A DNA stretch of 62,642 bases, counting the filler. It is 16 parts of 16 records of this genome, joined end to end, with 100 filler letters (N's around TTAATTAATTAA, not from the genome) between each part and the next. Parts side by side here need not be neighbours in the genome. Positions count along the whole stretch, not along the records: positions 33,781 to 39,642 come from SRR9670534_793; 15 more parts are not named here. One strand, given 5' to 3'. The translations under genes and the position numbers were made by a program. Below, piece by piece: positions 19,601-60,888 of the stretch. Under the pieces are notes generated by a model that was given only the letters and a program-made list of their open reading frames with translations, ran no database searches and was not told the DNA's origin. Every line of letters begins with the position of its first letter. The first letter of the stretch is position 1.

Positions 19601-20629
19601 TAATAATAATAAATAATTTTAAATAGTTTTTTGAGAATAATTACACCTTTTTGCAATATATTTTTCTTGAATATAACAAATATATGAGTAGCCAGCCAAC
19701 TGTCTTTGTTTGGGCGGACTAAATTCATCATATTATGTATAATAAATACTTCGCTTTGCTGGTTGGTCCAGCGTGGTCATTAATTAATCATTGTCGAAAT
19801 ACGTAGACCGGCGCTTTCAAAAGATGCTGTTGTTTTCTGTGATGAATTTGCAAATCGATAAATAATTGCAATTGTGATATATTACCATAATGTTTGTTAT
19901 AAATAAGTAAACAGTATAATTTTGCTTTCAAACGAGCTTTCAGTTGTATGAAAGGATGGATGTCGTATTAACATTTATTATTTATAACAGCTACTAGGAT
20001 GAATTTTGCTTCTTTTTAAAAATTAGAATATGAAACGTTTAACTAAAAGGCAAGAGTGGAAACTGTTAATAATAAGAGGTTCTTATTAATAAGAGCTTAA
20101 ACTTTAGCTTTGTCCACTAAAACAATTATGACCTCAATAAAGTTCGGCGACTATTACTGGAGGTAGTGGTATATAGCTAGGTCAAGGACGTTGGTAGAGT
20201 GCTGATTAACAGAAAATGGTTGAAGTTTTTGTTGGCTATTTTGCCAATCCTGTTTCTATTTCTGGCTTGTGTTTGTGTTAAATTTATTTTCTACCCAAAC
20301 TTTAATTTTATTTAAATTGTACGGAAGGGGTAAAATGACTTTTTATTCTACAGAAACAAGCCACAGTTTGATGTATCCTACGTTATTCTTTGTGTCGCAT
20401 TATCTAGTGTTTATCGATTTTTCGTCCTAGCCCCTCTCCCGTTGCTATGAGAGTCATCTTGATTGTATTATGATAATGTATTATGTATATGTGCTTAGCT
20501 ATATAAACAACAGAATATACAGTAGTATGTTGTTTTGATGGCTAGACATTAGGCTAACTCCATTTGCTTAGCTGTCTATACGCTTTTACTTGTCTTCTAT
20601 TAGACCCTGCAATGTAACCGCGAAAAACC

Positions 20630-22879
20630 ATGAGTTCCTCAGGTCCAGTTTTAAAACGCATATTGAGGACCTATCAAGCCTTTGCTGATACAAGTCTACA
20701 AGGTCCCAATGAAGCTCTTGATCGCCTTGCGGAGGTTGCAATGGCGGAAAGGGAAAAAGTTCAGCAGCAAAAGCAACATCAAGTGGAAAGCCCACCACAG
20801 CTTCACTTGATTCCTTCTCAAGAATCCCTGGTAGATTCTCAGCACAAAATCTTGGATTTTCATGGATTTGAAGTCGCCTATTTCAATGTAGCAGGCGAAC
20901 CAAGTCTGTGCTTAGCACAGGTTTTAAACAGCATACTTAGCGACTACCCACTACCAGACATATACCCTCACGTTGATTCACTTCAAATCTACTACAACAA
21001 ATGTACGGAGTCTCAGCTTCGCGACTTGAAAATGAGTACAATTTTGCCCAGCCACGTACCAAGTTGTGGTTTAATCAGAAGAACGGATGCTGAAAGGCTG
21101 CTCGCCAGTCTTTTGTATGGTAGATCAAACACCGCACCAGGAAATTTAGATCAAGTACTGGTAGAAAAACTGGCAAATGATGATTGCACCAGAGATTACT
21201 TCTTTGTGTCACAAGAAGTTTTCGGAGAAGCCTGGGGTTGTTTCTATGAAAAGGGTTTCAATGGAGATGGTGGCAACTCGAAGTGCATTGAATGTCTTCA
21301 ATGCCATCTCATTTTGTCTCCGGTAGAATTTTGTTTTCACACACATATTCCAGACAAGAAATCAACCTGCTACTGGGGTTTTGACAGCAATAATTGGTCA
21401 AAGTACATACACTTGGTAGATGATACGTCTGACAAAGCTGTCGTCCAAAAGTCCAAGGAAAAATTTGAGGAAATTTTAAGAAGAACCGTCGATGACCTTG
21501 ACGCAGCAACACCATTAATAGCTGAATTTCCTTTGACAATGGATATGCTAAAACAAAAGGTACTTACTTAGACTTGTATTCTTTATTCTTGCATGCTACG
21601 TACGAAAGATTCCTAAAAATCATGCCAAGGAAAATTTGACGACCTTGGCCTTGCTCCATCACGCAGGAGGAAAGGCATTGGGAACAATGATCCTGACTTG
21701 TTGTTGTGTTGTTGTTGCGATTATTTTTCATTCCTAAAAGGGAAGCAAATAATCTGGTGCGGCATATGTAATTTTATGTAAATTTTACGAGATTTCTCAT
21801 AAATCATGTTAGCTAGTAAAATGTAAATCATGTTGCATACCAAACTACATACATACTACCGTATTGCATCCCATAAAATAAGGAGAAAGAAGCCTTGGCC
21901 AAATGTTTCATGCGTAAATTTATGAGGCCCTGAATAGCTGATTCCATCGATATTTTTGCAGAGATTTTCATTTACTTCCTCATACATCTCATTGTTTAAA
22001 GCAAATTTATTACATATTCACTTTTAATTGTATGTGTTGTGCAAGAACGTCCCTTTAATTCCAATCTCTTTAGGTATCCGCTGAAGAATCTAATGACGTC
22101 ACTTTTTTGAAAGAGAAGAACCTAAGGTATGTTAAGTGCAATAAGACACCGCGCCAGCACACAGCTGCGTTAATAATTGCTATTAGATATGCATTACACT
22201 ATACTTAGCGCCAGGCTAGGCATTAGACATAACTACTAATTGCCATTAGCTGAAATGTAAAAAAAGAAGCGTCGTCATGATGTTTTAATTTTTAGAAAAG
22301 AAAGTGATCCTGGAGAAGTTATTGCTATCCCAGGTGGTGCAGTCTCATATCCGCCGATGAAGAAGAGATTGTACGCTTATTTGTACCTTACTTCATTCAT
22401 TATTATAGCGTTTTTTGTTGTAGATTAACTGAGGAGAGTTGTAAACCTTCAGTACCTGCCAAAAAAAGAAGCAAAGAGCAACAGCAACAACCTCAACCAA
22501 ATGAAGCCTGCAAAGGATCTGAAGATGGAGGAAGTCAAGCATCTCAGAATTTGTCTCAATTCGTTAGCAGAAAAGAGTTTGAAGATTATAAGCGAGCTTC
22601 GGATAACAAGCTTGACATCTTGCAAAAGGTAAGGCAAATTCGTCGTCAGTACTACTGAATCAATGATCTACTGGGACTACGCAATTAATTAAATTGATTT
22701 TATTTTAGAACTTGGCTATGTTGACAACCAAATATGAGCAACTCAGAAGCTTATACTTTACAAAAAGTGGTGTTGGGGGTGCGAATGTATTGACCCATCC
22801 AGCTTTATTTGGCGCTGCTGCTCCGCTAAAATCTGCGTATTACTTTGCTTCTCCTTATGGTACTCGACTTGGTGATTAG
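20630..22879 (+). CDS. SKI: SKI/SnoN family Smad co-repressor
   Basis: Exons 20630-21559, 22074-22126, 22296-22370, 22424-22628 and 22709-22879. N-terminal R-Smad-binding motif LKRILRTYQAFADTSLQGP, Dachshund-homology domain (F.VAGE..LCL.Q.LN; SCGLI..TDAERL), SAND-like Smad4-binding domain (CIEC..C....SP..F..H.H; TCYWGFDSNNW..Y) and a C-terminal coiled coil. Confidence 0.92.
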
Positions 22880-34660: not shown

Positions 34661-35201
34661 GCCTCCTGAATTATTGTCAAGCGCTTTCAAATGTCAGTTT
34701 GCCTGAAAAGTCATTCTGAGTTTTACCTTTTTCAAATTTGTGATGATAAACAATAAAAAGTTTCTTCAATATACGACGATTTAATAAAAATTTATTTTTT
34801 CAATAGTTTTTTAATAAGAATTATTATACTTTACTTTTTGCAACACATTTTTTTTGTTTCGAAAAAATAAACAAATTAATAAGTATAAACATATTGTTAT
34901 TATTATTATTAATATTGATAAACATAACCAAAACTGCATTGCTATTGTTAATAATAATAAAAAAAGGGCAAATTCATGCTCAACATGAAGATCATGCCCA
35001 TGTAGGTGTTAATAATGTATTGATTTGTTGCCATCTTGAAAAGTGTGAAAAGAAATAAATGCTTGTTGTCACGCAAGTAGTTTTAATATTATTGAAAAAT
35101 TTCATACTGCTTTATTATCAATTATTAATTATTCATGGTGAGTTGATATGGCAGATCCAGAGACCCCTTGTCAATTTATTGAACATGGGGTAAATTTGCT
35201 T

Positions 35202-37752
35202 TCAAAAAAGCCCTTCTGTTGTGGCAGAGTAGTTGAACGTCGCGTTTGAATTGAGGGTCGTAGTATTACCAAGTTGAGAGGATATTGCAATGGTTGTAGC
35301 TTTTAATTGTACAATAAGCAGCAGATAGGTTGCTATCATGCCAAAAACCTAAATTAAGTTTGGTTTCAACTATTTTATTAATGGTAATAGCAATATAACA
35401 TATTACAGAAGCAATATACCAATATTATATTGTATTATATAATATAATATTGCATTACATTATACTATATTGTCAATATAATATTATATTGTATTATATT
35501 ATATTGACAATATAGTATACTATACACACTATACTTGGAACATTCAATATGCCGATATAATATACTTACTGTAAACGCAAATTGCTTGTCCACAACAAAT
35601 GTGTATAGAAATGTTAAACCTGAAGGCATTGACATTTGGTGCCAGTAAACCTTTGCCTACAAAAGATAATGATAAAATTATAATGTATACTATATATACA
35701 TGATTTAGTATTATTAATTGGAGATAACTCTTATTATGAAAATATATTGTTCTTTCAATATATGGTAGGTTTTCAATAATTTTAATGTACTTTTAATTTT
35801 ATTAAATTTGAAATCTAACTAGCATTACTTTTAACATCATGTTACAATTTTATATATTTTTAAATTATTATTTTTATTTAAAATTACTTTTAATATGTCA
35901 TAATATATATTTTTAAATTATTAATTTGACTTGAATATGAACTTCTTTCTATTGTTAATAGTATTATTAATAAATATTTATTTTTAATATTTTTATATTG
36001 AATAATTAGTGCCTAAAGATCAATATTTAATAATTTTAAAATTTAATATTTTAATAATTAAAAACAAATTTAAAAACGCTGGTTTTCCACGTTATAAAAT
36101 AAGCTTTCTTTTTAAGTATTTCAGTATACTATGAAATACTATAAAATATAACAAAGTTCTATAAAATTCTATACTTTATCTTTATTAATAGTTATTTTTC
36201 ATAGTATATTATTGCTTATTACATGATTGCTTATGAAAAATACTGATTTATTGCTACTATAGTTACTATATATGTCTATCACTTTTTATCCTAATGTAGT
36301 TTTATTGTAATTCTGATTTTTATGTCAATCTTACAATTAGAAACATACCTCGGAACGCTTGTAGGGGGTCTTTGCAGCATTTAATTTCAATACTTGGTAT
36401 TTCATCCCTTCAAACTAAAATTTCAAAAAGCGTCAATAAAATTATCTACTAATATATTAAATATAACAAACAAAATATATGTCTCTAAATAATTTTTTAT
36501 TTTTCAATTTGTAAACCTTAGCTTTTAATTTTATTAAAATTTGAATTAAATTTTTTTGCTTTTATTAAATGGCTTGAATAATTTAAAAATAAAATGCAAT
36601 ATTAAAAAGTAATAAAAACAACCAATAAAAACCATAATTTTAAAAATCAAATTTACATAATTTAAAATATTATAAATAATTAAAAAAATTAAGATGGCTT
36701 TGTTAGCTTTATAAAAATCTTACAGCATTAAACATGACAATTCCAGCAGCAAAAATGGTCACAGTCTCAATCATAGCAGCAGAAATCCACATGATCAACA
36801 CCAGTGCTTCAATAAATGTGACATTTCCACTTGCTATGTCATCAACTACTTGGTATGCCATCAAAACCAATATAATACATGAACCACATATGTGTACAGT
36901 TTCCAGCCACCCAAATTTATTGTCCATTGTCATCATGAACCTTGTTGAGTTCAAATGCCTCATCCTAAAGCAATTCACATGGACTGAATTAAGCAAGGAA
37001 CCATCTTCTCCTGTATTTCTCACCAAAAAATTTAGGTCAATGTTATATTTATTTCTAATTAAAAATGCAAATGAAATTGTATGGGCCAAGCCATAAAGCC
37101 AAAAGGCTGATGTAAAATGAAACTGGATTGTGACTATAACCAACCATCCACTTCTAAAAGATTGATCATCAGTGTCTATGAAATGTTTTGGAGCATAGAT
37201 CATGTCAGTGGTGGTTGTGAAGACATCAGGAAGAACACCAATTAGGATACATGTAAACACCAAGCCTCCATGAAGCATCAGAAGTAGCCCAATTGCTACA
37301 AATTGGTGTTTCTTGATTAACTTTGGCAGTTCCTTGTATTCTGTCTTGATGTCTTGACACCAATTGGACTTGACTTGCATACATTCTCTCCATTTTTTGG
37401 CAAGAGACTGAAAACCTGATTTGGTGGAGGTTGTGTATCTAAGATAAGCCAATGATGCTATCATTGCCTTACTGCACCAAGCATGACATGCCAGATCCAA
37501 GAAAGTCTTGTTGTTGAACCCAGTGCTGTTGGTGTAGCATGTAAATTGCTTGAAGAAAAATGAAATGACACAAAGTCTAGCAAAAATGGCATACATGAGG
37601 GAGGCAACCTTTAAAATTGACTTTTTGTTCTTATTGCCCTTGTCATAGTCATAGGTGATGACACCAGATAAGGTACCAACTACATAAAGCCATTTCATCA
37701 GAGATTGGAGTTCATTTTCTTTCAGGTCAATGCTTTGGTATTCTGGAAACAT
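35202..37752 (-). CDS. Gustatory receptor-like (GRL / 7TM ion channel superfamily) protein, ~442 aa
   Basis: Exons 37752-36724, 36414-36349, 35656-35570 and 35348-35202, with three phase-0 introns near the 3' end. Multiple TM helices, GLT(F)...F.VDK in TM7a and the TM7b signature ATYLLLIVQL (TYhhhhhQF). Confidence 0.88.
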
Positions 37753-39154
37753 GGCACTAAATTTCTTCCAATAATATTATTATGGCATCCTATTTAGTAT
37801 GAAAGGGAGTATTGCTTTTATGATGGCACACCAAATTAAATATTCAAGAATTGCCCCTATGTTCATTTCATTATTATTATATAGCTTTTGTTCTCTACCC
37901 TGCTGAAAGGTATTGACGGAATTGTGCATGAGGTATGAACATGTACATGAATCCATAAATCAATAATAAAAGAGCATTCATTGTGTTTGTGGAGCCCTGA
38001 GCAAATAATTGGAAGCAATTGAATTATAGACATTGTAATGTTCAGCAAACATTGTGCAATTTGGAATCTTGAAATTAAACATACTAATGATATGCTGTAT
38101 TATAACATCATTAAAGTGGTTAATATGATATTGCCAACTATTGTTCCACTTGTATTGATTTTTACCCCCACATGGAGGACATGGCAAAATGCTTGGTTTA
38201 CCAAATACAAAAGAGGTATGTTATAATTAATGTAATATTATTATTGCATGTTGGTCATTTTCAGAATGCTGAGCTATTATGCATATATGTATATGAACTA
38301 ATAATAATAACCTATTAAAAAATACTAAAAAATGTTAATAAAATAAAATTAGTAATTAATTTATAATTAAAAGAAAAAATGAAAAATTTTTAAATAAATA
38401 ATAATTTAATAATAGAAATTAAAATTATAATATAAAATAATTTGAAAATATAATAATAAATTTATTAATTTAATAATACATTAATAATGTAATACATGTA
38501 ATAAAAAATTGCATTTAAAAAATCAAAAGTTTAACAGTATAGCCGAAACACCAATCTGTAATAAATTAAAATTATAGTAAATAATTTATGTCTTTTGAGT
38601 TGTAGATAATTTGAAATATTTTTGTAAACTTCAAAGCATAAATTCATAAATCAATTTTAATTAAATAGCATTGTACTTGTCCAAACATTGATAATAATAA
38701 TAATTTGATATTAATTAATATTTTATTAACCATAAGCATTTTCAAATGTTTTAATAAAGAAAATTATTGCTAAAGCATCTATGCATCTTGGGAACAAGTT
38801 GTTCCTGCAACAAGGGTAAGTTTGATGCTTACAATTACCAAGGGGGCATATATATCATTGTCGCATAATTGCAAGGGGCGTCTCCAGGGCTTTGCAAATC
38901 TAGGCACCAAGTATTACCAAGAAGTATTGACCCCCTTAGCTGTCCATATTTATTAGCGTCTCTATACAAATGGGGTTCATATCGTGCGCACGCTAACAGT
39001 GACGCTATTATAGCGTCATATTATACATATAATTCAATATGTAAATAAGAGGTGGTTGTAGTTCTGTTGTACATTAATATTATACAGTGGTAAGAAATGG
39101 AAAGTAAACATTCTTTACAAGGAAAGCTTAGCTTGATAATAAAAACAGCAAACT

Positions 39155-39421
39155 TCATCTTTCATCATTTGATTGATTTGTTACTTTTGGACAATTCTCT
39201 ATGGCATATTCATAGCTTGGAGGTTGCTCAGTGGGAATAATCTCACATGTGGTGTTTGTGTAGAAGACATTGGGTTCCCTCCCACACCCATTGTTTGGTG
39301 ATTGTGGACTTCTTCTTTCCTTACAGAAGTGTCTCTTACATCTTATGCATAATAAAAGTGCAAGAAAGAAAATAAGGATTCCAGAACCTATGCATAAACT
39401 AATAATCTCTTGATTGTCCAT
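39155..39421 (-). CDS. Small single-pass membrane protein with PPxY motif (88 aa)
   Basis: TM IISLCIGSGILIFFLALLLCI, basic/Cys juxtamembrane RCKRHFCK and cytosolic PPSYE. Confidence 0.7.
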   Translation of the reverse strand: MDNQEIISLCIGSGILIFFLALLLCIRCKRHFCKERRSPQSPNNGCGREPNVFYTNTTCEIIPTEQPPSYEYAIENCPKVTNQSNDER

Positions 39422-39899
39422 GGAGTTGCTATGTGATGCCCTTTAATAACACAAGAAGGTAGAGAAAAGCAAATGATCACAAGGTGCAAAATATTATCAA
39501 GCAGGTAAGAGTTTTTTCTACTAAAGGTAAAGTAATGCTTATTTCGAGATAAGATTTTTATCAAGGTGTAGCAGAACAATTTTAAAGAACAAATAAGAAC
39601 GTAATCTTGTGCTATTATTAATATTTATATTAATATTATTATNNNNNNNNNNNNNNNNNNNNNNNNNNNNNNNNNNNNNNNNNNNNTTAATTAATTAANN
39701 NNNNNNNNNNNNNNNNNNNNNNNNNNNNNNNNNNNNNNNNNNCAATCATAACGGTCACGTGATCGGCTGCAATCATTGCGCGCGCGACTGTAATGATTTG
39801 GCTTGCACTGTATTATAGTACTGCGGTATTACGTTATAGGCTATCATGTTGAATTCTTATTATTCACAAGATGTTGTCACAATTCGATTACATTATATT

Positions 39900-40337
39900 A
39901 TGAATATACCTGCATTACAATGTACTGTTTTAGGCGGTTGTGCTTTCCTGACAATACTCATAATTGTGTTTATTGCTGCAAGATTCAGGGGATCCAAAGA
40001 ACGCAAGATACTTGTACCTACAGCTAAAGATGATGGTTACATGTATTCGTACAGTTACAACCCACCTCAACAACCATACATTATAGAAGCTAACCCAGTT
40101 CAAGCGTCTCCCTATGCCTCCCCCTATGTTGTCAGCAGCCTTTACCTACAAAGACCGGCACCAGTTCCAGCACCAAGATATGTGCCTATCAAAAGAGGAA
40201 TTGAGCTGACTCCAGCTGCTATGTATGATGAAGTGAACTTTGACAGAAGAGACGCTGAAGACAGGGTTCAAGTTAGGGGTGGTGAATATGATTACCATTA
40301 CCCAAGACCAGCCTATGTTAATCCAAATTACTATTAA
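39900..40337 (+). CDS. Single-pass membrane protein with Tyr/Pro-rich cytoplasmic tail
   Basis: MNIP start (an upstream ATG at 39846 is also possible), TM VLGGCAFLTILIIVFIAA followed by RFR, and a tail with repeated ASPY, YDEV and terminal NPNYY. Confidence 0.65.
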   Translation: MNIPALQCTVLGGCAFLTILIIVFIAARFRGSKERKILVPTAKDDGYMYSYSYNPPQQPYIIEANPVQASPYASPYVVSSLYLQRPAPVPAPRYVPIKRGIELTPAAMYDEVNFDRRDAEDRVQVRGGEYDYHYPRPAYVNPNYY

Positions 40338-42774: not shown

Positions 42775-43894
42775 TTATGAATTTATTTGTTGGATTCTGA
42801 TTTTCAATGGCTTCCTAGGAGGAGTCCTCCTAGGTTTTCCTCTCAGATTTTTTCCTCTCAGTTCCTTTGACGTGTAGGGCTTTTGTTCTTCACTTTCATA
42901 AAGCTTTCTTATCTCCCTGAGAAGCATTGTTCTGGGAGATAATACCGACTTGTTTGTACCTCGATGGTACGAAATATTGAGATCTTTGTTTTTAGCTTCA
43001 ACACCTTGTTGACCATACTGATGAAGTGGTCCTAGTGCTATAGCCAGTTTAGGCATATGCACTGCTAGATAATGAACATAAGGAATGACATTTTCAACTC
43101 CAAAAGCTTTAATAAAGACATTAAAAAACGTCGTTCCATATCCTTCAATACTTTTTGGATCAAATGGACCTTCATTGACATACTGATAAATTCTTTTAAA
43201 ATGACGCCAGCATTTAATTATTTCAGCCTTCTTGTCTGTTATTTGGCCTTTAAATTCAAACCTGCTCCAAGTATCCTCTAGAACCAAAGCATCTAAGAGA
43301 GCTTTTTTCTGATTGCCATCCAATGAATCTATTTTAATGTCTCCCTTGGATATCAATACTTTATAGCTAATTCCTGTTATATCGGTTACAAATTTTGACA
43401 AACAGGCTATTTCTTTTTCCTTTCCTTTCTTCAAACTCTCACCTGTTTCCTTTACTATTTCACTTAGTTCAGAATTTTCATCGGCTGATACTGCAGAACT
43501 TATAGGAGCTTTTTTAGAACGTGTTTTAGAAACTTTTTTAGAAACATTAGGATTTTCATTGCCTATTGCTTCAGAAACTTCATCAGTAATTGATAACTGC
43601 ACTGTGGTTTGCTGCCACATTTTGTCAAATACCCTTAACAATGCATGTAATGGATCAATAACAATTCTATTTTCTCTCCGCAATCTTTCAAAAAATTTAG
43701 ATTCTAATGGCTTTTCAGTGTTTATGGATTTTACTGTTGCACCATCCTTAGACTTCATTTCATGGGAATCAATATTGCACAGAAGGCATGGATTTCTTGT
43801 ACTAAAACCATTGGGATCATTTACGAAGAGATGCATTGTTTTAAGGTCAGCACACAGATAGAACTTAATGAGATAAGTTCTTCCACGAACAGTT
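42775..43894 (-). mobile_element. RAG1/Transib-like DDE transposase, terminal exon (5'-partial)
   Basis: Acceptor AG at 43896-43895 with an open frame to the stop at 42775. Ordered motifs CADLK, CLLC, IDPLH, LDGNQKKAL, PYVHYLAVH and QQGVEAKNK align with RAG1 core GYDEK, CTLC, IDALH, MNGNFARKL, NYFHKTLAH and SEGNESGNK. Confidence 0.82.
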
Positions 43895-44791
43895 CTAAAT
43901 AGAATTATGTCAATTAGTGATTTTGTATATTAATATTATTTTAGTTTATAGTTATTATTACTTTTTGCACATTTATTTTTAAAAACATAATTAAAAGTTT
44001 TATTAAAAAGATAATTTAGCATTTATTGTTGTAGTATCCGATATAATGCAGCATTATTAATGATGCATTTGTATTATTTAAGACAACAAGAATTGTGGTA
44101 CTTAATAAGTACTACTTAATGAGTAGTACTTATGTCGTTGGATATATTGTATAAAATTATTGTAGTTTATTATAATAATATTGGTATATTCTTGGCTATC
44201 TGTCACTTTTTGGCTGTACAGTAGGTTGANNNNNNNNNNNNNNNNNNNNNNNNNNNNNNNNNNNNNNNNNNNNTTAATTAATTAANNNNNNNNNNNNNNN
44301 NNNNNNNNNNNNNNNNNNNNNNNNNNNNNTTATTATAATAATTATTATTATAATAATATGATTAATAATTACTATATAACAATAACTTATTGAATATAAC
44401 AATAATATAAAAGTATGGTTTATTGTTAAGCATTTGAAGAAATAAAAATGTCAATTTAGTAAGAACCTGCTAAATAATAATAAAATGTGTAAGTTATTTA
44501 TCTACTGTTCAACATTAATTACTTAATAATAATAAGATTTAATAAACTGGCTGTACTGTTCAAATAAATTATGTGAACAATATTCATAAAATGATTTTAT
44601 GCAAGACGTGATTTCTTGAGTATATGGAACCACTGGTTTTCTATAGGTATTTTGCATAGAGCATTGTTAAAAATGCTTTTGTTATTATTACTCTAACGAA
44701 CAATGCAAGAGTATAGGTATACTAGGATAACAATAACAATCCTTTGCAAACAGAAGTATTTAGACTTGATCAGGTTGTAGCAATCAAGTAG

Positions 44792-46537
44792 ATGGATGTC
44801 CTACCGCTTTCCAAAATTCTACCTTCATTATTACTAATTATAGTAATTGTTCCTTACCCGCTAATTTCAGCAACAAAATGGAAAAATGTTGTTTTATTCC
44901 TTGCAGATGACCTAGGCTACAATGATGTCGAATGGAGAAATAGTGAAGTTATTACGCCAAATCTTCGAAAATTATCAACGAGTGGTGTTAGAGTAGACAA
45001 CTTTTATACCCACAATTTGTGTAATCCCTCCAGAGCAGCGCTTCTCACAGGATACTATCCCAATCATAATGGAATGCAATCAGGTGCATTGGGTTCTTGT
45101 ATGCCATACGGTTTGGATGAAAGTTTTACCATGTTTCCTCAAGAATTGAAAGAATTTGCTAATTATTCAACATTTTTATTGGGAAAATGGCATTTGGGTT
45201 TTTGCAAGGAGGAATATCTGCCAAATTCCAGAGGATTTGATTACTTCCATGGACTATATTGTGGAGAATGTGGCCAATTTGAGCATGATGTTTGTATTCC
45301 AAGTGAATCCTGTGGAGACACTCCAGAACCCTATGCCTTTGGACTTGATTTTCACATAAATACTGAACCAGATTGGGAAAGCGTTGGCACATTTAGTGCC
45401 GACGTTTATACCAATGAAGCACTGAGAATAATTGATGAAAACATAAACAATCCATTTTATTTGCATGTAGCATACCAACTTCCTCATTCTCCAATGGAAG
45501 TACCTGAAGAATATTTACAAATTTTTGAACATATATCAGAGGACTTGTCTGTTAGAAAAGCATATTTGGCGCAAGTATTAGCAATGGATAGAAGCATTGG
45601 GCTTATTGTTGAAAAGTTAAAAGAAACTGGACTTTGGGACCATACTTTGGTTATTTATAGTTCGGATAATGGGGGTTCACCAGGATCTGGTGCAAATAAT
45701 ATGCCTTTGAGAGGTGGAAAAGATTCTGTTTTTGAAGGTGGTCACAGAACTTTTGCAATTATTGCTGATGATGAAATAAAACCTAGTTTGAAAGGTATGG
45801 CAAATATTTAAAATTTTGTAAAACTTTGTTTAATATGTATAGTTTTGTTTACTGAGTTAAGTTCTTATGACTTGATAAACATTATTTAAAATTTTAAATT
45901 TAATGTAATAATTAAAATTTGAAATATAAAATTTTAAATTTTAAATTTAAATTTAATTTTGAAAATACCTTGTTCAGGAGGAATTACAGAGGAATTGATA
46001 GCTATTGAAGATCTCAGGTCAACAATTTTGTCTGCAGTTGGTATGAACGGTTTTGCTTTAAATGATGGCATTAACATGTGGCCATTTTTAACAAAAGAAG
46101 AAATCACTGATAGCAGCAGGCATAATTTCATTTACACCCTAGACCAAACCTACAAATATGCAGCAATTCGACAAGATAATTACAAGCTTATTTTCAATAC
46201 AGATATTGACGATTGGTGGTCACCAGGTAGTTTTCCGTATAATGAAGGAATCTTCGAGTCCTGTAAATTATTGGAGACAGGAATGAATTATACCCTTCAG
46301 GGTATAAAACCTGATGATACATTACAAAGTGGTCAAATTTGGTTGTTTAACTTAGAAGTAGATCCCTACGAAAGTACGAACCTTGCATATTATGAACCCA
46401 GTATTACTTACCAACTTTTGGCAATGGCTCTTGAAATCCTAAAAACAAACTTTCCTGTTAATGCTGGTGATAGAACACCTACTTCAACGGCTTCCCCTGA
46501 AAATTTTGGAGGAGTTTGGTCTTCCGGATGGTGTTGA
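44792..46537 (+). CDS. Arylsulfatase (ARSB/ARSI/ARSJ-like), secreted or lysosomal
   Basis: Exons 44792-45794 and 45978-46537. Signal peptide, LADDLGYND, formylglycine motif CNPSRAALLTG, GKWHLG, SSDNGG, N.PLRGGK...FEGG and LFNLE.DPYE..NL. Confidence 0.95.
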
Positions 46538-57816: not shown

Positions 57817-58806
57817 TTAAACGGATTTCATTCCGGCCAATCGTCTCAACTGCTCCCACGTCATCATTTGAACAGTTGAAAACATCATGAATCTCAACCA
57901 TTGAGGTGCAAAACCTTTGTAAATTGCGAAAAATCCTTCACTTAGCACTGTTCTACGTATACAATCAAACATGCCAACATAAACGCGCTGCTCAGACTGT
58001 TTCATTATTCGAGTCAGGGTGATATCAACCGGAGCAGTGACGACCGCAATTACCATGCCAGAAATGACACCACCAGCAAATTCGCATATTATAGAATTTG
58101 ACGTAAACTGGGCAACAAAATATTTAATGTATTCATAAGTAGTTAATTTCGTAGAATTTAAAAGGCCAGCTTTCATCATGGTAGGATATGCACCTTTCCA
58201 CAATCCACGTACTCCCTCCTTAGAATACACGTTATAGATTGTTTTGGTAAGGCTTCTTCTCGTGTTCTCGGAAGCTTGCAGTTTTATTTTCATGTGATCT
58301 GTTGGAGTGGCACATGCTGCTCCAATGACTCCACTTAACCCACCTGCAAGAAGTTTTACATGTAAAGCCACTTCAGTTGCTTTTTGACCTTCTTTCGCAC
58401 CAAAGAGTTTCTTGAAAGGTTCATATAACCCAAGTCTTAATGATGAATAAACGCCTTCTCGGCCCCAGCAAGGAAGAAGACCTTTATATAAACCAGTAAA
58501 ACCTTCTCTTGCTGCGATTATACGAAAGGTAGTCCATAGATTAGTATAGTGTCGGGTCCCACCAACTTTGCCTAATTCACGATAAATCTGTAATCTGATT
58601 TTGCAGGTATCGACAGGATGTGTTACTGTTCCTGCTACAATACTAGCAGCCCCAGCCAAAATAACCTTTCCTAGCGTTTCTTTAGTTGTAGCTTCATTTC
58701 TAATTACAACAGTTTTCTGTTTCAACAACTGACTAGTATGGGACTGAACTGCTTCGCTTTCTAGAGAGGGCATATTTATTACAGATCGGCAATGCCGAAT
58801 CGGCAT
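57817..58806 (-). CDS. SLC25 mitochondrial carrier (UCP/dicarboxylate-carrier-like), intronless
   Basis: Three carrier repeats with P-x-D motifs (HPVDTCKIRLQ, TPTDHMKIKLQ, APVDITLTRIM) and EG...L[YW]KG motifs; YSSLRLGLYE is typical of the UCP/OGC/DIC group. Confidence 0.93.
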   Translation of the reverse strand: MPIRHCRSVINMPSLESEAVQSHTSQLLKQKTVVIRNEATTKETLGKVILAGAASIVAGTVTHPVDTCKIRLQIYRELGKVGGTRHYTNLWTTFRIIAAREGFTGLYKGLLPCWGREGVYSSLRLGLYEPFKKLFGAKEGQKATEVALHVKLLAGGLSGVIGAACATPTDHMKIKLQASENTRRSLTKTIYNVYSKEGVRGLWKGAYPTMMKAGLLNSTKLTTYEYIKYFVAQFTSNSIICEFAGGVISGMVIAVVTAPVDITLTRIMKQSEQRVYVGMFDCIRRTVLSEGFFAIYKGFAPQWLRFMMFSTVQMMTWEQLRRLAGMKSV

Positions 58807-59783: not shown

Positions 59784-60888
59784 TTACAGATTAACTGCCT
59801 CTTCATAAGATGGTGGTACATTTTCGGAATCACTAGTAATAATACTTTCGTACGAAGGTGGTTCAGGAACATTGCTTTGAATATCATTAATCTGAGATTC
59901 ATCGGCATCGTTTGAAAGTTGAAATTGTAAATAAAAATCTACTTCTGCACCTTGATTATTATTAAGTTCAACATCAGGTGCAGTTACAACAACAGCAGTA
60001 TTGTTTGTTGCTTGAGTTCGAACATCTCGACGATGACAACAGCAACAACATGTGCAACAATGATGACAGCAATGGTGACAACAAGTCCGACAACTGCAAG
60101 AACGACAACAAAAGGTATGCCAGCTGGTACCGCAATCTAAAACCAAAAGGGATAAGTTACAACGTTATAACCTTATACGAATAATAACAATACCATATAT
60201 ACTGTACATATGTACCTCGAACACTGTGCCAACAACCATTAATTCTTGTTTGGACAGAGCCACAAAAATCACTTATAACATCCCAACATTTCCAGTTGCT
60301 TTTTCTAATGAAACCAGTAAACATAAAGAAGACAAACAAGAAAAAAAGAAACACTAGAACTTTCCAAATAATATTAGCCACATCAAAAACTTCTTCACCA
60401 GTAACTATAATATCAAATCGAATGGATGAGGAAGCAAATTCTGGCCACCAAATAAAATATAAATTGCTGTTGCAGGGTAAGGATTCAGAAGAAAATTCTT
60501 CATTGTCTTTTACAAAAATATAAGAATCATTCACTTTAAAAAATGCAACTGTATAAGTATAATCAATGCCAATAATTTCTTCATCGAAGGCAGAACCTTC
60601 AACATAAAATGTTAATCTCAAAAGTTCATGATGTTCACAAATGTTTATTTCTACAGAACAGTATTTTAGGGAGCAGTTTGAGAATTCAGAAAGTGAAAAA
60701 CAGTCACCATAATAACTGGACAGGTTAAAATATGACGGATAATGCATAGATTGGACGGATGATTCAACAGTAGGTTCATTCAGAATCAACATACTGTCAA
60801 TACACATTGTAGCAGAACCATAAACTCTAGAACGGAGTGCAACTATTAGTAGTAGGAACAACATAATGAATGGAGAAATTTGCTTCAT
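59784..60888 (-). CDS. Type I membrane protein with CUB-like ectodomain, Cys/His-rich cytosolic stretch and two PPxY motifs
   Basis: Exons 60888-60216 and 60136-59784 (phase 1). Signal peptide; ectodomain with VQSMHYPSYF..C...C (CUB-like SPxYP position); TM VLVFLFFLFVFFMFTGFI; CCRSCSCRTCCHHCCHHCCTCCCCC; PPSYE twice. Confidence 0.75.

Follow-up and report, generated by a model that had tools for sequence, protein, structure and literature searches.

The gustatory receptors (GRs) of insects and their gustatory-receptor-like (GRL) homologues in other animals are members of the superfamily of seven-transmembrane ion channels (7TMICs). One of them, Gr9 of Bombyx mori (BmGr9), has been described as a homotetramer that forms a fructose-gated cation channel (Frank et al. 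2024, PMC11100771), and the Orco/GR fold set out in the same work comprises S0 and the helices S1-S7, S7 being split in two, S7a and S7b, as well as a cytoplasmic anchor domain (PMC11100771). Outside the arthropods, the survey by Benton et al. (2020) lists GRLs from cnidarians, placozoans, nematodes (gur, LITE-1), echinoderms and other animals, and describes their roles as largely unknown and not necessarily chemosensory. According to that survey, the sole known primary-sequence feature of the GR/GRL family is a short motif, (T/S)Yhhhhh(Q/K/E)(F/L/M), lying within the C-terminal half of the last transmembrane (TM) helix, TM7, and rated as "diagnostic, but not definitive" (Benton et al. 2020). 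Here we describe a gene on the minus strand of a 62.6-kb stretch of DNA (the window hereafter, made of 16 joined parts of one genome; 30.3% GC). Judging from its sequence, we take this gene, which sits in an AT-rich animal genome, to be a very divergent GR/GRL member of the 7TMIC superfamily, and we put the probability of this assignment at about 85%. The locus would most likely correspond to an intact four-exon gene that is a singleton within the window. Motif, intron position, intron phase and predicted topology, the features by which GR/GRL genes are recognised in the literature, are all present in it. The original prediction of a GR-like 7TMIC gene with an ancestral intron pattern, made from the sequence alone, is supported by the motif, by the position and phase of the introns, by the topology and by the protein-language-model features of exon 1.

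The core of the GRL gene is a stop-to-stop open reading frame (ORF) of 355 codons on the minus strand (36709..37776), which reads as 347 amino acids (aa) from the ATG at 37752 and lies downstream of an in-frame stop at 37779..37777. This is the 347-aa hydrophobic ORF from which the original prediction had started, and the three additional small exons that it proposed are found as well: they add 22, 29 and 48 aa to 343 aa of the long frame, giving a predicted protein of 442 aa. The limits then given for the gene coincide exactly with those of the coding sequence (CDS; 37752..35202). Exon 1 (36724..37752; 343 codons; 37.7% GC) opens with the ATG at 37752 and encodes an S0-like hydrophobic N-terminal stretch followed by the predicted TM1-TM6, while exon 2 (36349..36414; 22 codons; 40.9% GC) is predicted to contribute a basic cytoplasmic loop after TM6. 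Exon 3 (35570..35656; 29 codons; 37.9% GC) would encode an S7a-like segment and the start of TM7b, its last codon being that of Thr394. Exon 4 (35202..35348; 48 codons plus TGA; 40.1% GC) carries the remainder of TM7b with the motif and, after it, the C-terminal tail. The exons are separated by intron 1 (36415..36723; 309 nt; GTAAGA...TTTTAG; 14.6% GC), intron 2 (35657..36348; 692 nt; GTATGT...TTGTAG; 16.5% GC) and intron 3 (35349..35569; 221 nt; GTAAGT...ATTTAG; 19.5% GC). The reading frame stays open over all 442 codons, and each of the six splice sites follows the canonical GT-AG rule. Since every exon length is divisible by three, the three introns are all in phase 0, as had been claimed. 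An AATAAA that may act as polyadenylation signal is situated 22 nt past the stop codon (35175..35180, minus strand). No run of N bases falls inside the gene. Automated annotation would probably end this gene early, at the 347-aa ORF.

One of the features that connect the locus to the GR/GRL family is TYLLLIVQL, which spans residues 401-409 of the spliced protein (35304..35330, minus strand). It is located in the last hydrophobic segment and agrees with the published TM7 definition at each of the four positions specified there, and no other match to the motif occurs in the six frames of the 62.6-kb window. The TM7b motif that had been pointed out is present, and unique in the window. The original prediction had also read the end of the motif as a QL replacing the conserved QF. 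The terminal Leu is indeed there, but the published definition admits F, L or M at the last position, and Leu409 thus represents an allowed variant and not a departure from the motif.

In 200 block shuffles, the mean number of chance matches per window was 0.255 for the loose pattern and 0.015 for its strict form, TY-h5-Q-[FL]. The first of these values, along with the fact that the motif is made up mostly of hydrophobic residues, gives some room to a different explanation, namely that the gene encodes a lineage-specific orphan multi-pass membrane protein, transporter-like or GPCR-like (G-protein-coupled receptor), which is unrelated to GRs and in which motif and intron phases have come together by chance. 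We regard this as very unlikely. Chance would have to supply jointly a motif that lies on the right strand and 1.4 kb downstream of the large hydrophobic ORF, an acceptor in phase 0 exactly six codons ahead of this motif, two further phase-0 introns, a Thr at motif position -7 and a distribution of charges that corresponds to an N-in/C-out protein.

The position and phase of the introns form the second line of evidence for a GR/GRL gene. Penalva-Arana et al. (PMC2680840) describe a conserved phase-0 last intron, six codons before the motif, in nearly all Daphnia Grs, in most insect Grs and in the nematode gur genes. Three phase-0 C-terminal introns are reported there as common to insect chemoreceptor lineages (PMC2680840), and the last ancestral GR intron has been placed within TM7 (PMC5203786). 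The conservation of introns in the family is characterised in these sources as "general, but not universal" (PMC9998090, PMC2680840, PMC5203786). Intron 3 of the GRL gene is a phase-0 intron found exactly six codons before the motif, residue 395 being the first of exon 4 and residue 401 the first of the motif. Introns 1 and 2, after residues 343 and 365, are also in phase 0 and fall between the predicted TM6 and TM7, a region for which phase-0 introns have been described in the family (PMC9998090, PMC5203786, PMC2680840). The agreement of these two introns with the family descriptions is at the level of phase and of TM6-TM7 location.

The small exons on which this comparison depends stand out from their surroundings by composition. 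While the exons of the predicted gene range from 37.7 to 40.9% GC, its introns range from 14.6 to 19.5%. ORFs elsewhere in the window that are backed by Pfam have 36-43% GC. Calibration for this contrast was provided by a sulfatase gene on the plus strand (44792-46537), in which two long ORFs of 339 and 199 codons are separated by an intron-like gap of about 126 nt with 13.5% GC. The same contrast being found in Pfam-backed genes of the window, the difference between coding and non-coding GC content appears to hold across the genome. Within 36760..35150, the only 45-nt windows with at least 33% GC are those at the end of exon 1, in exon 2, in exon 3, and in exon 4 with its 3′ flank. When the 33 open AG..GT phase-0 candidates were ranked by GC, exon 2 came first and exon 3 fourth, the second and third places being taken by candidates inside exon 4. 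The proposed internal exons have also the best donors among the 33, and the alternatives are weaker.

These data bear as well on a rival view, in which the locus does belong to the family but does not work as the gene modelled here. The copy might be unexpressed or decaying, or the true transcript might use other exons, for instance a further coding exon upstream or another 3′ end. At the 5′ side, an AG preceded by ttt is found at 37758..37757 (minus strand), 4 nt upstream of the ATG, and might serve as acceptor for an upstream exon. The approximately 550 nt upstream of the ATG (37753..38300) have 31% GC, which is above the level of the introns. An intron in the 5′ untranslated region or an upstream exon could accordingly belong to the gene. 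At the 3′ side, the tail of 33 aa is long by comparison with the Daphnia Grs described as ending directly after the motif (PMC2680840). Against a decayed or mis-modelled gene speak the 442 open codons and six canonical splice sites, an exon/intron GC contrast as sharp as that of the Pfam-backed genes in the window, the AATAAA 22 nt past the stop codon, and the weakness of the alternative internal exons. On the same side, 14 residues precede the first hydrophobic stretch of the protein; in the BmGr9 structure, 15 N-terminal residues are reported as unresolved, and only five at the C-terminus (PMC11100771). Taking both sides into account, we consider a non-working or differently spliced locus unlikely, and an intact four-exon GR/GRL gene remains the preferred interpretation.

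The predicted topology of the protein is that of a 7TMIC. For this prediction, seven TM segments were set manually, using Kyte-Doolittle peaks and the helix limits of an AlphaFold run, a heuristic procedure and not a trained predictor. With this assignment, lysine and arginine residues (K+R) add up to 30 in the predicted cytoplasmic segments vs 4 in the extracellular ones, and six of the seven N-x-S/T sequons would be extracellular: Asn75 and Asn81 in extracellular loop 1 (EL1), Asn310 in EL3, and Asn422, Asn429 and Asn433 in the tail. The seventh, Asn268, is predicted to be in a cytoplasmic loop. The 33-aa tail that follows the motif contains 12 Ser/Thr residues and the sequons NTT, NAT and NYS, in keeping with the Ser/Thr-rich tail of about 30 aa noted in the original prediction. 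The extracellular C-terminus and inverted topology proposed there gain support, at the level of this heuristic, from the positive-inside count and from the placement of the sequons. Both features support an N-in/C-out arrangement of seven helices as in 7TMICs, the reverse of that in GPCRs. A GPCR-like version of the orphan membrane protein considered above, with its N-terminus outside, is contradicted by the 30 vs 4 distribution of K+R. For the same reason, a GPCR-type seven-TM identity was rejected, the charge asymmetry being opposite to GPCR topology.

A further indication comes from protein-language-model features. Searches were run on the separate exon peptides, chiefly on exon 1, which accounts for 343 of the 442 aa, whereas the spliced 442-aa protein was used only for tblastn within the window. 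In the ESM Atlas, the first match of exon 1, a part of the protein that lacks the motif and the introns and on which the original prediction did not draw for its argument, is an arthropod cluster carrying 7tm_7 at 0.94, with 204 of 256 features shared. Among the 30 nearest clusters, 24 come from sets with 7tm_7, Trehalose_recp, DUF267 or DUF3537, and none of the 30 represents a named family unrelated to these. More precisely, 14 clusters carry 7tm_7, six carry 7tm_7 together with Trehalose_recp, three belong to DUF267-carrying sets (two of them also with 7tm_7), one carries DUF3537 at 0.91, and the remaining six are unnamed arthropod clusters. That the neighbours of exon 1 are independently of the 7tm_7 type in 24 of 30 cases, with no other named family, is a second argument against an unrelated orphan protein.

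Several results weigh against the assignment of this gene to the GR/GRL family, and the orphan explanation draws on the first of them: by alignment, no similarity to GR, GRL, odorant receptor (OR) or DUF3537 proteins could be detected, be it in the two large protein libraries searched, in Pfam or among the sequences of the PDB. A word-indexed search of 5.8 billion proteins with exon 1 gave 1306 word-sharing candidates, none of which was retained at E 0.001 or even at E up to 10. Comparison of exon 1 by phmmer with 1.84 billion representatives returned no credible relative. Its one match (P0002, E 6.6e-5) was judged spurious, as the protein concerned is 900 aa long, contains three internal repeats and matches locally over some 47 residues. 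Scanning the four exon peptides separately against Pfam at E up to 10 yielded only DUF5708, at E 9.2, in a scan in which the most conserved region was split between peptides of 29 and 48 aa. Among PDB sequences, exon 1 had no match. Those obtained with the short exons were irrelevant, and consisted of one GGA1 fragment for exon 4 (E 0.32) and of 26 T-cell-receptor beta-chain sequences plus one mannosyltransferase for exon 3 (E 0.83-2.2). Within the window, tblastn with the spliced protein found no paralogue of the gene, only its own four exons and chance matches at E 2.4 and 2.8. The Atlas neighbours themselves are leads and not tests, in that 4-10 of every 100 shuffled proteins reach a first match of at least 0.9, and the shares of the family are low in several of the clusters; exon 4 alone had no usable ESM Atlas match. 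The single-sequence AlphaFold2 model of exon 1, made with no alignment, reached a mean predicted local distance difference test (pLDDT) score of 39.4 and a predicted template-modelling (pTM) score of 0.32, which makes it unusable for a fold search, and it puts strands where TM4 would be expected. To these points has to be added the heuristic character of the hand-made TM assignment. A scan of metagenome contigs gave 63 pattern matches, with none confirmed.

The weight of the negative searches is tempered by what is reported for bona fide members, since missing Pfam and BLAST matches are common within the GR family. In the set of 447 spider-mite GRs described in PMC5203786, 40 matched 7tm_7 at E<0.01 and 15 had BLAST matches in nr.

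The structural work on BmGr9 allows the residues of the predicted pore to be considered one by one. In BmGr9 the motif reads 436-TYLVILIQF-444, and T436 and T429, the latter placed seven residues earlier, contribute rings of hydroxyls to the ion path (Frank et al. 2024, PMC11100771). Two such rings, equivalent to those of T429 and T436, are also described in Orco and MhOr5 (PMC11100771). According to the same source, Y437 touches pore-penetrating lipids, I440 and F444 make up a double hydrophobic gate, and Q443 moves into the pore on activation (PMC11100771). In Orco, the residue matching the last motif position is the hydrophobic-plug residue L473 (AbOrco) (Frank et al. 2024, PMC11100771). 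The GRL protein has Thr394 seven residues before the motif residue Thr401, and the complete series at the BmGr9-equivalent positions is Thr394, Thr401, Tyr402, Leu405, Gln408 and Leu409.

This correspondence with the BmGr9 assignments is the basis for proposing that the product acts as a subunit in a tetrameric, ligand-gated cation channel, which is probable by analogy, with less confidence than the family assignment itself. The working model that we favour would be as follows. Four subunits, all of this protein or in part of a partner, would surround a central pore whose lining comes from the C-terminal half of TM7, with Thr394 and Thr401 contributing two hydroxyl rings to the ion path. In the closed channel, Leu405 in the middle of the motif and Leu409 at its end would form a hydrophobic gate, and binding of a ligand in a pocket made by TM1-TM6 would cause Gln408 to swing into the pore. 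The N-terminus and the basic loops would be cytoplasmic, and these loops, jointly with the S7a-like segment of exon 3, would build the cytoplasmic anchor. The 33-aa glycosylatable tail would be outside the cell, beside the mouth of the pore. The role of such a channel in the animal may be chemosensory or developmental.

Such a gene is of importance in that GR-like channels are scarce outside the arthropods and, for the most part, have no known function. Those described by Benton et al. (2020) have been linked to light sensing, to the control of egg-laying, to body patterning and to taste. Because it appears to be intact, is alone in the window and seems to keep every residue tied to conduction and gating in the structural work, the GRL gene would be a practical candidate for testing ligand gating in non-insect GRLs. 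The case illustrates, in addition, that family members missed by alignment searches of billions of proteins can be recovered from a nine-residue motif taken together with the position and phase of introns.

A bolder interpretation, which we find doubtful, is that the gene comes from an animal lineage with no recorded GRL, and possibly no recorded proteome, in line with the low identities found for a conserved mitochondrial carrier in the window (see below). In that case it may be a protein invisible to alignment that keeps nevertheless the exact ancestral intron and all the pore-lining positions of the motif. As a singleton it could form a homomeric channel close to the ancestral state of animal 7TMICs, and a glycosylated tail over the mouth of the pore would be a trait undescribed for GRs in the sources consulted. 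Comb jellies, sponges, choanoflagellates and chordates are listed in the sources consulted as being without the GR/GRL family before 2023. If the host were to belong to a lineage thought to be without the family, the known range of GR/GRL proteins would be extended.

The remaining content of the window informs about the host. Animal origin is marked by a Ski-family gene, a spectrin-repeat gene, a sulfatase gene and genes for a GAT-domain protein and a calcineurin-like phosphatase. The clearest sign of an animal genome in the window is the Ski-family exon on the plus strand (20618-21571), which matches the SKI/SNO/DAC Dachshund-homology domain at E 5e-27 and the c-SKI Smad4-binding domain at E 2.5e-21. 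A single-exon mitochondrial carrier gene with PF00153 relatives is found on the minus strand (57820-58806), 20 kb from the GRL gene in window coordinates. Its best matches among 5.8 billion proteins are only 42-43% identical over 85-89% of the query, with shorter partial matches reaching up to 47%; the named proteins among the top matches are from ciliates. In view of these low identities, the source lineage seems to be poorly represented in protein libraries. Two explanations suggest themselves for the divergence of the carrier: the lineage may evolve fast and be missing from the libraries, or the carrier may be a paralogue specific to its lineage.

Other elements of the window deserve a brief mention. 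A frame of 384 codons on the minus strand (42775-43929), unusually long for an ORF without annotation in DNA of 30% GC, is open and has no Pfam match at E 0.001. Three short ORFs, at 39155-39442 (minus strand), 39840-40337 (plus strand) and 59784-60164 (minus strand), share proline-rich PPxY-like motifs. A hydrophobic stretch is present in two of them, the third being rich in Cys, and the one at 39840-40337 has no Pfam match. They may encode small single-pass membrane proteins. Searches of the window with Rfam and with a transfer RNA (tRNA) scan gave no matches. The 1320 N bases of the window are organised in 15 pairs of 44-N runs with 12 bases between the members of each pair (e.g., 2119-2162/2175-2218 and 33681-33724/33737-33780), a regularity that looks like a masking or scaffolding convention rather than ordinary gaps.

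Among the channels described so far, the GRL protein can be compared in some detail with BmGr9. As far as the published description of BmGr9 goes, the T, Y and Q positions of the motif are kept and the middle gate residue is hydrophobic in both proteins (TYLLLIVQL vs TYLVILIQF), a Thr precedes the motif Thr by seven residues in each of them (Thr394 here, T429 in BmGr9), and an N-terminal hydrophobic S0-like stretch is followed by seven hydrophobic segments. A difference resides in the last motif residue, which is Leu here and Phe in BmGr9. At this very position the GRL protein resembles Orco, whose plug residue is also a Leu (L473 in AbOrco, Leu409 here), and both ring positions are occupied by hydroxyl residues, as is reported for Orco. 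Unlike the GRL gene, Orco belongs to an insect-specific expansion, and sequence similarity between the two was not detected.

With arthropod GRs in general, the gene has in common the three C-terminal phase-0 introns described for them, the last one six codons before the motif. It differs from them in the lack of alignment-detectable similarity, in being a singleton within the window and not part of a tandem array, and in its 33-aa Ser/Thr-rich tail with three sequons, whereas some GRs are reported to stop right after the motif (PMC2680840). The GRLs from outside the arthropods provide a parallel in genomic setting, as the gene is found in an animal genome outside the well-annotated arthropods and has the TM7 motif and the characteristic 3′ introns described for such GRLs, although none of them was matched in the protein-library searches. 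Finally, the DUF3537 proteins, PHTF and the Drosophila Grls are described with the same predicted topology, and one of the Atlas neighbours is the DUF3537 cluster mentioned above. In the survey of Benton et al. (2020), plant DUF3537 proteins are reported to have neither the TM7 motif nor the conserved 3′ introns, and the motif of unicellular GRLs and of the cryptic Drosophila Grls is described as partial or unrecognisable (Benton et al. 2020; PMC9998090). Since motif and 3′ introns are both present in the gene described here, we place it with the animal GR/GRL lineage proper rather than with these remote branches of the 7TMIC superfamily.

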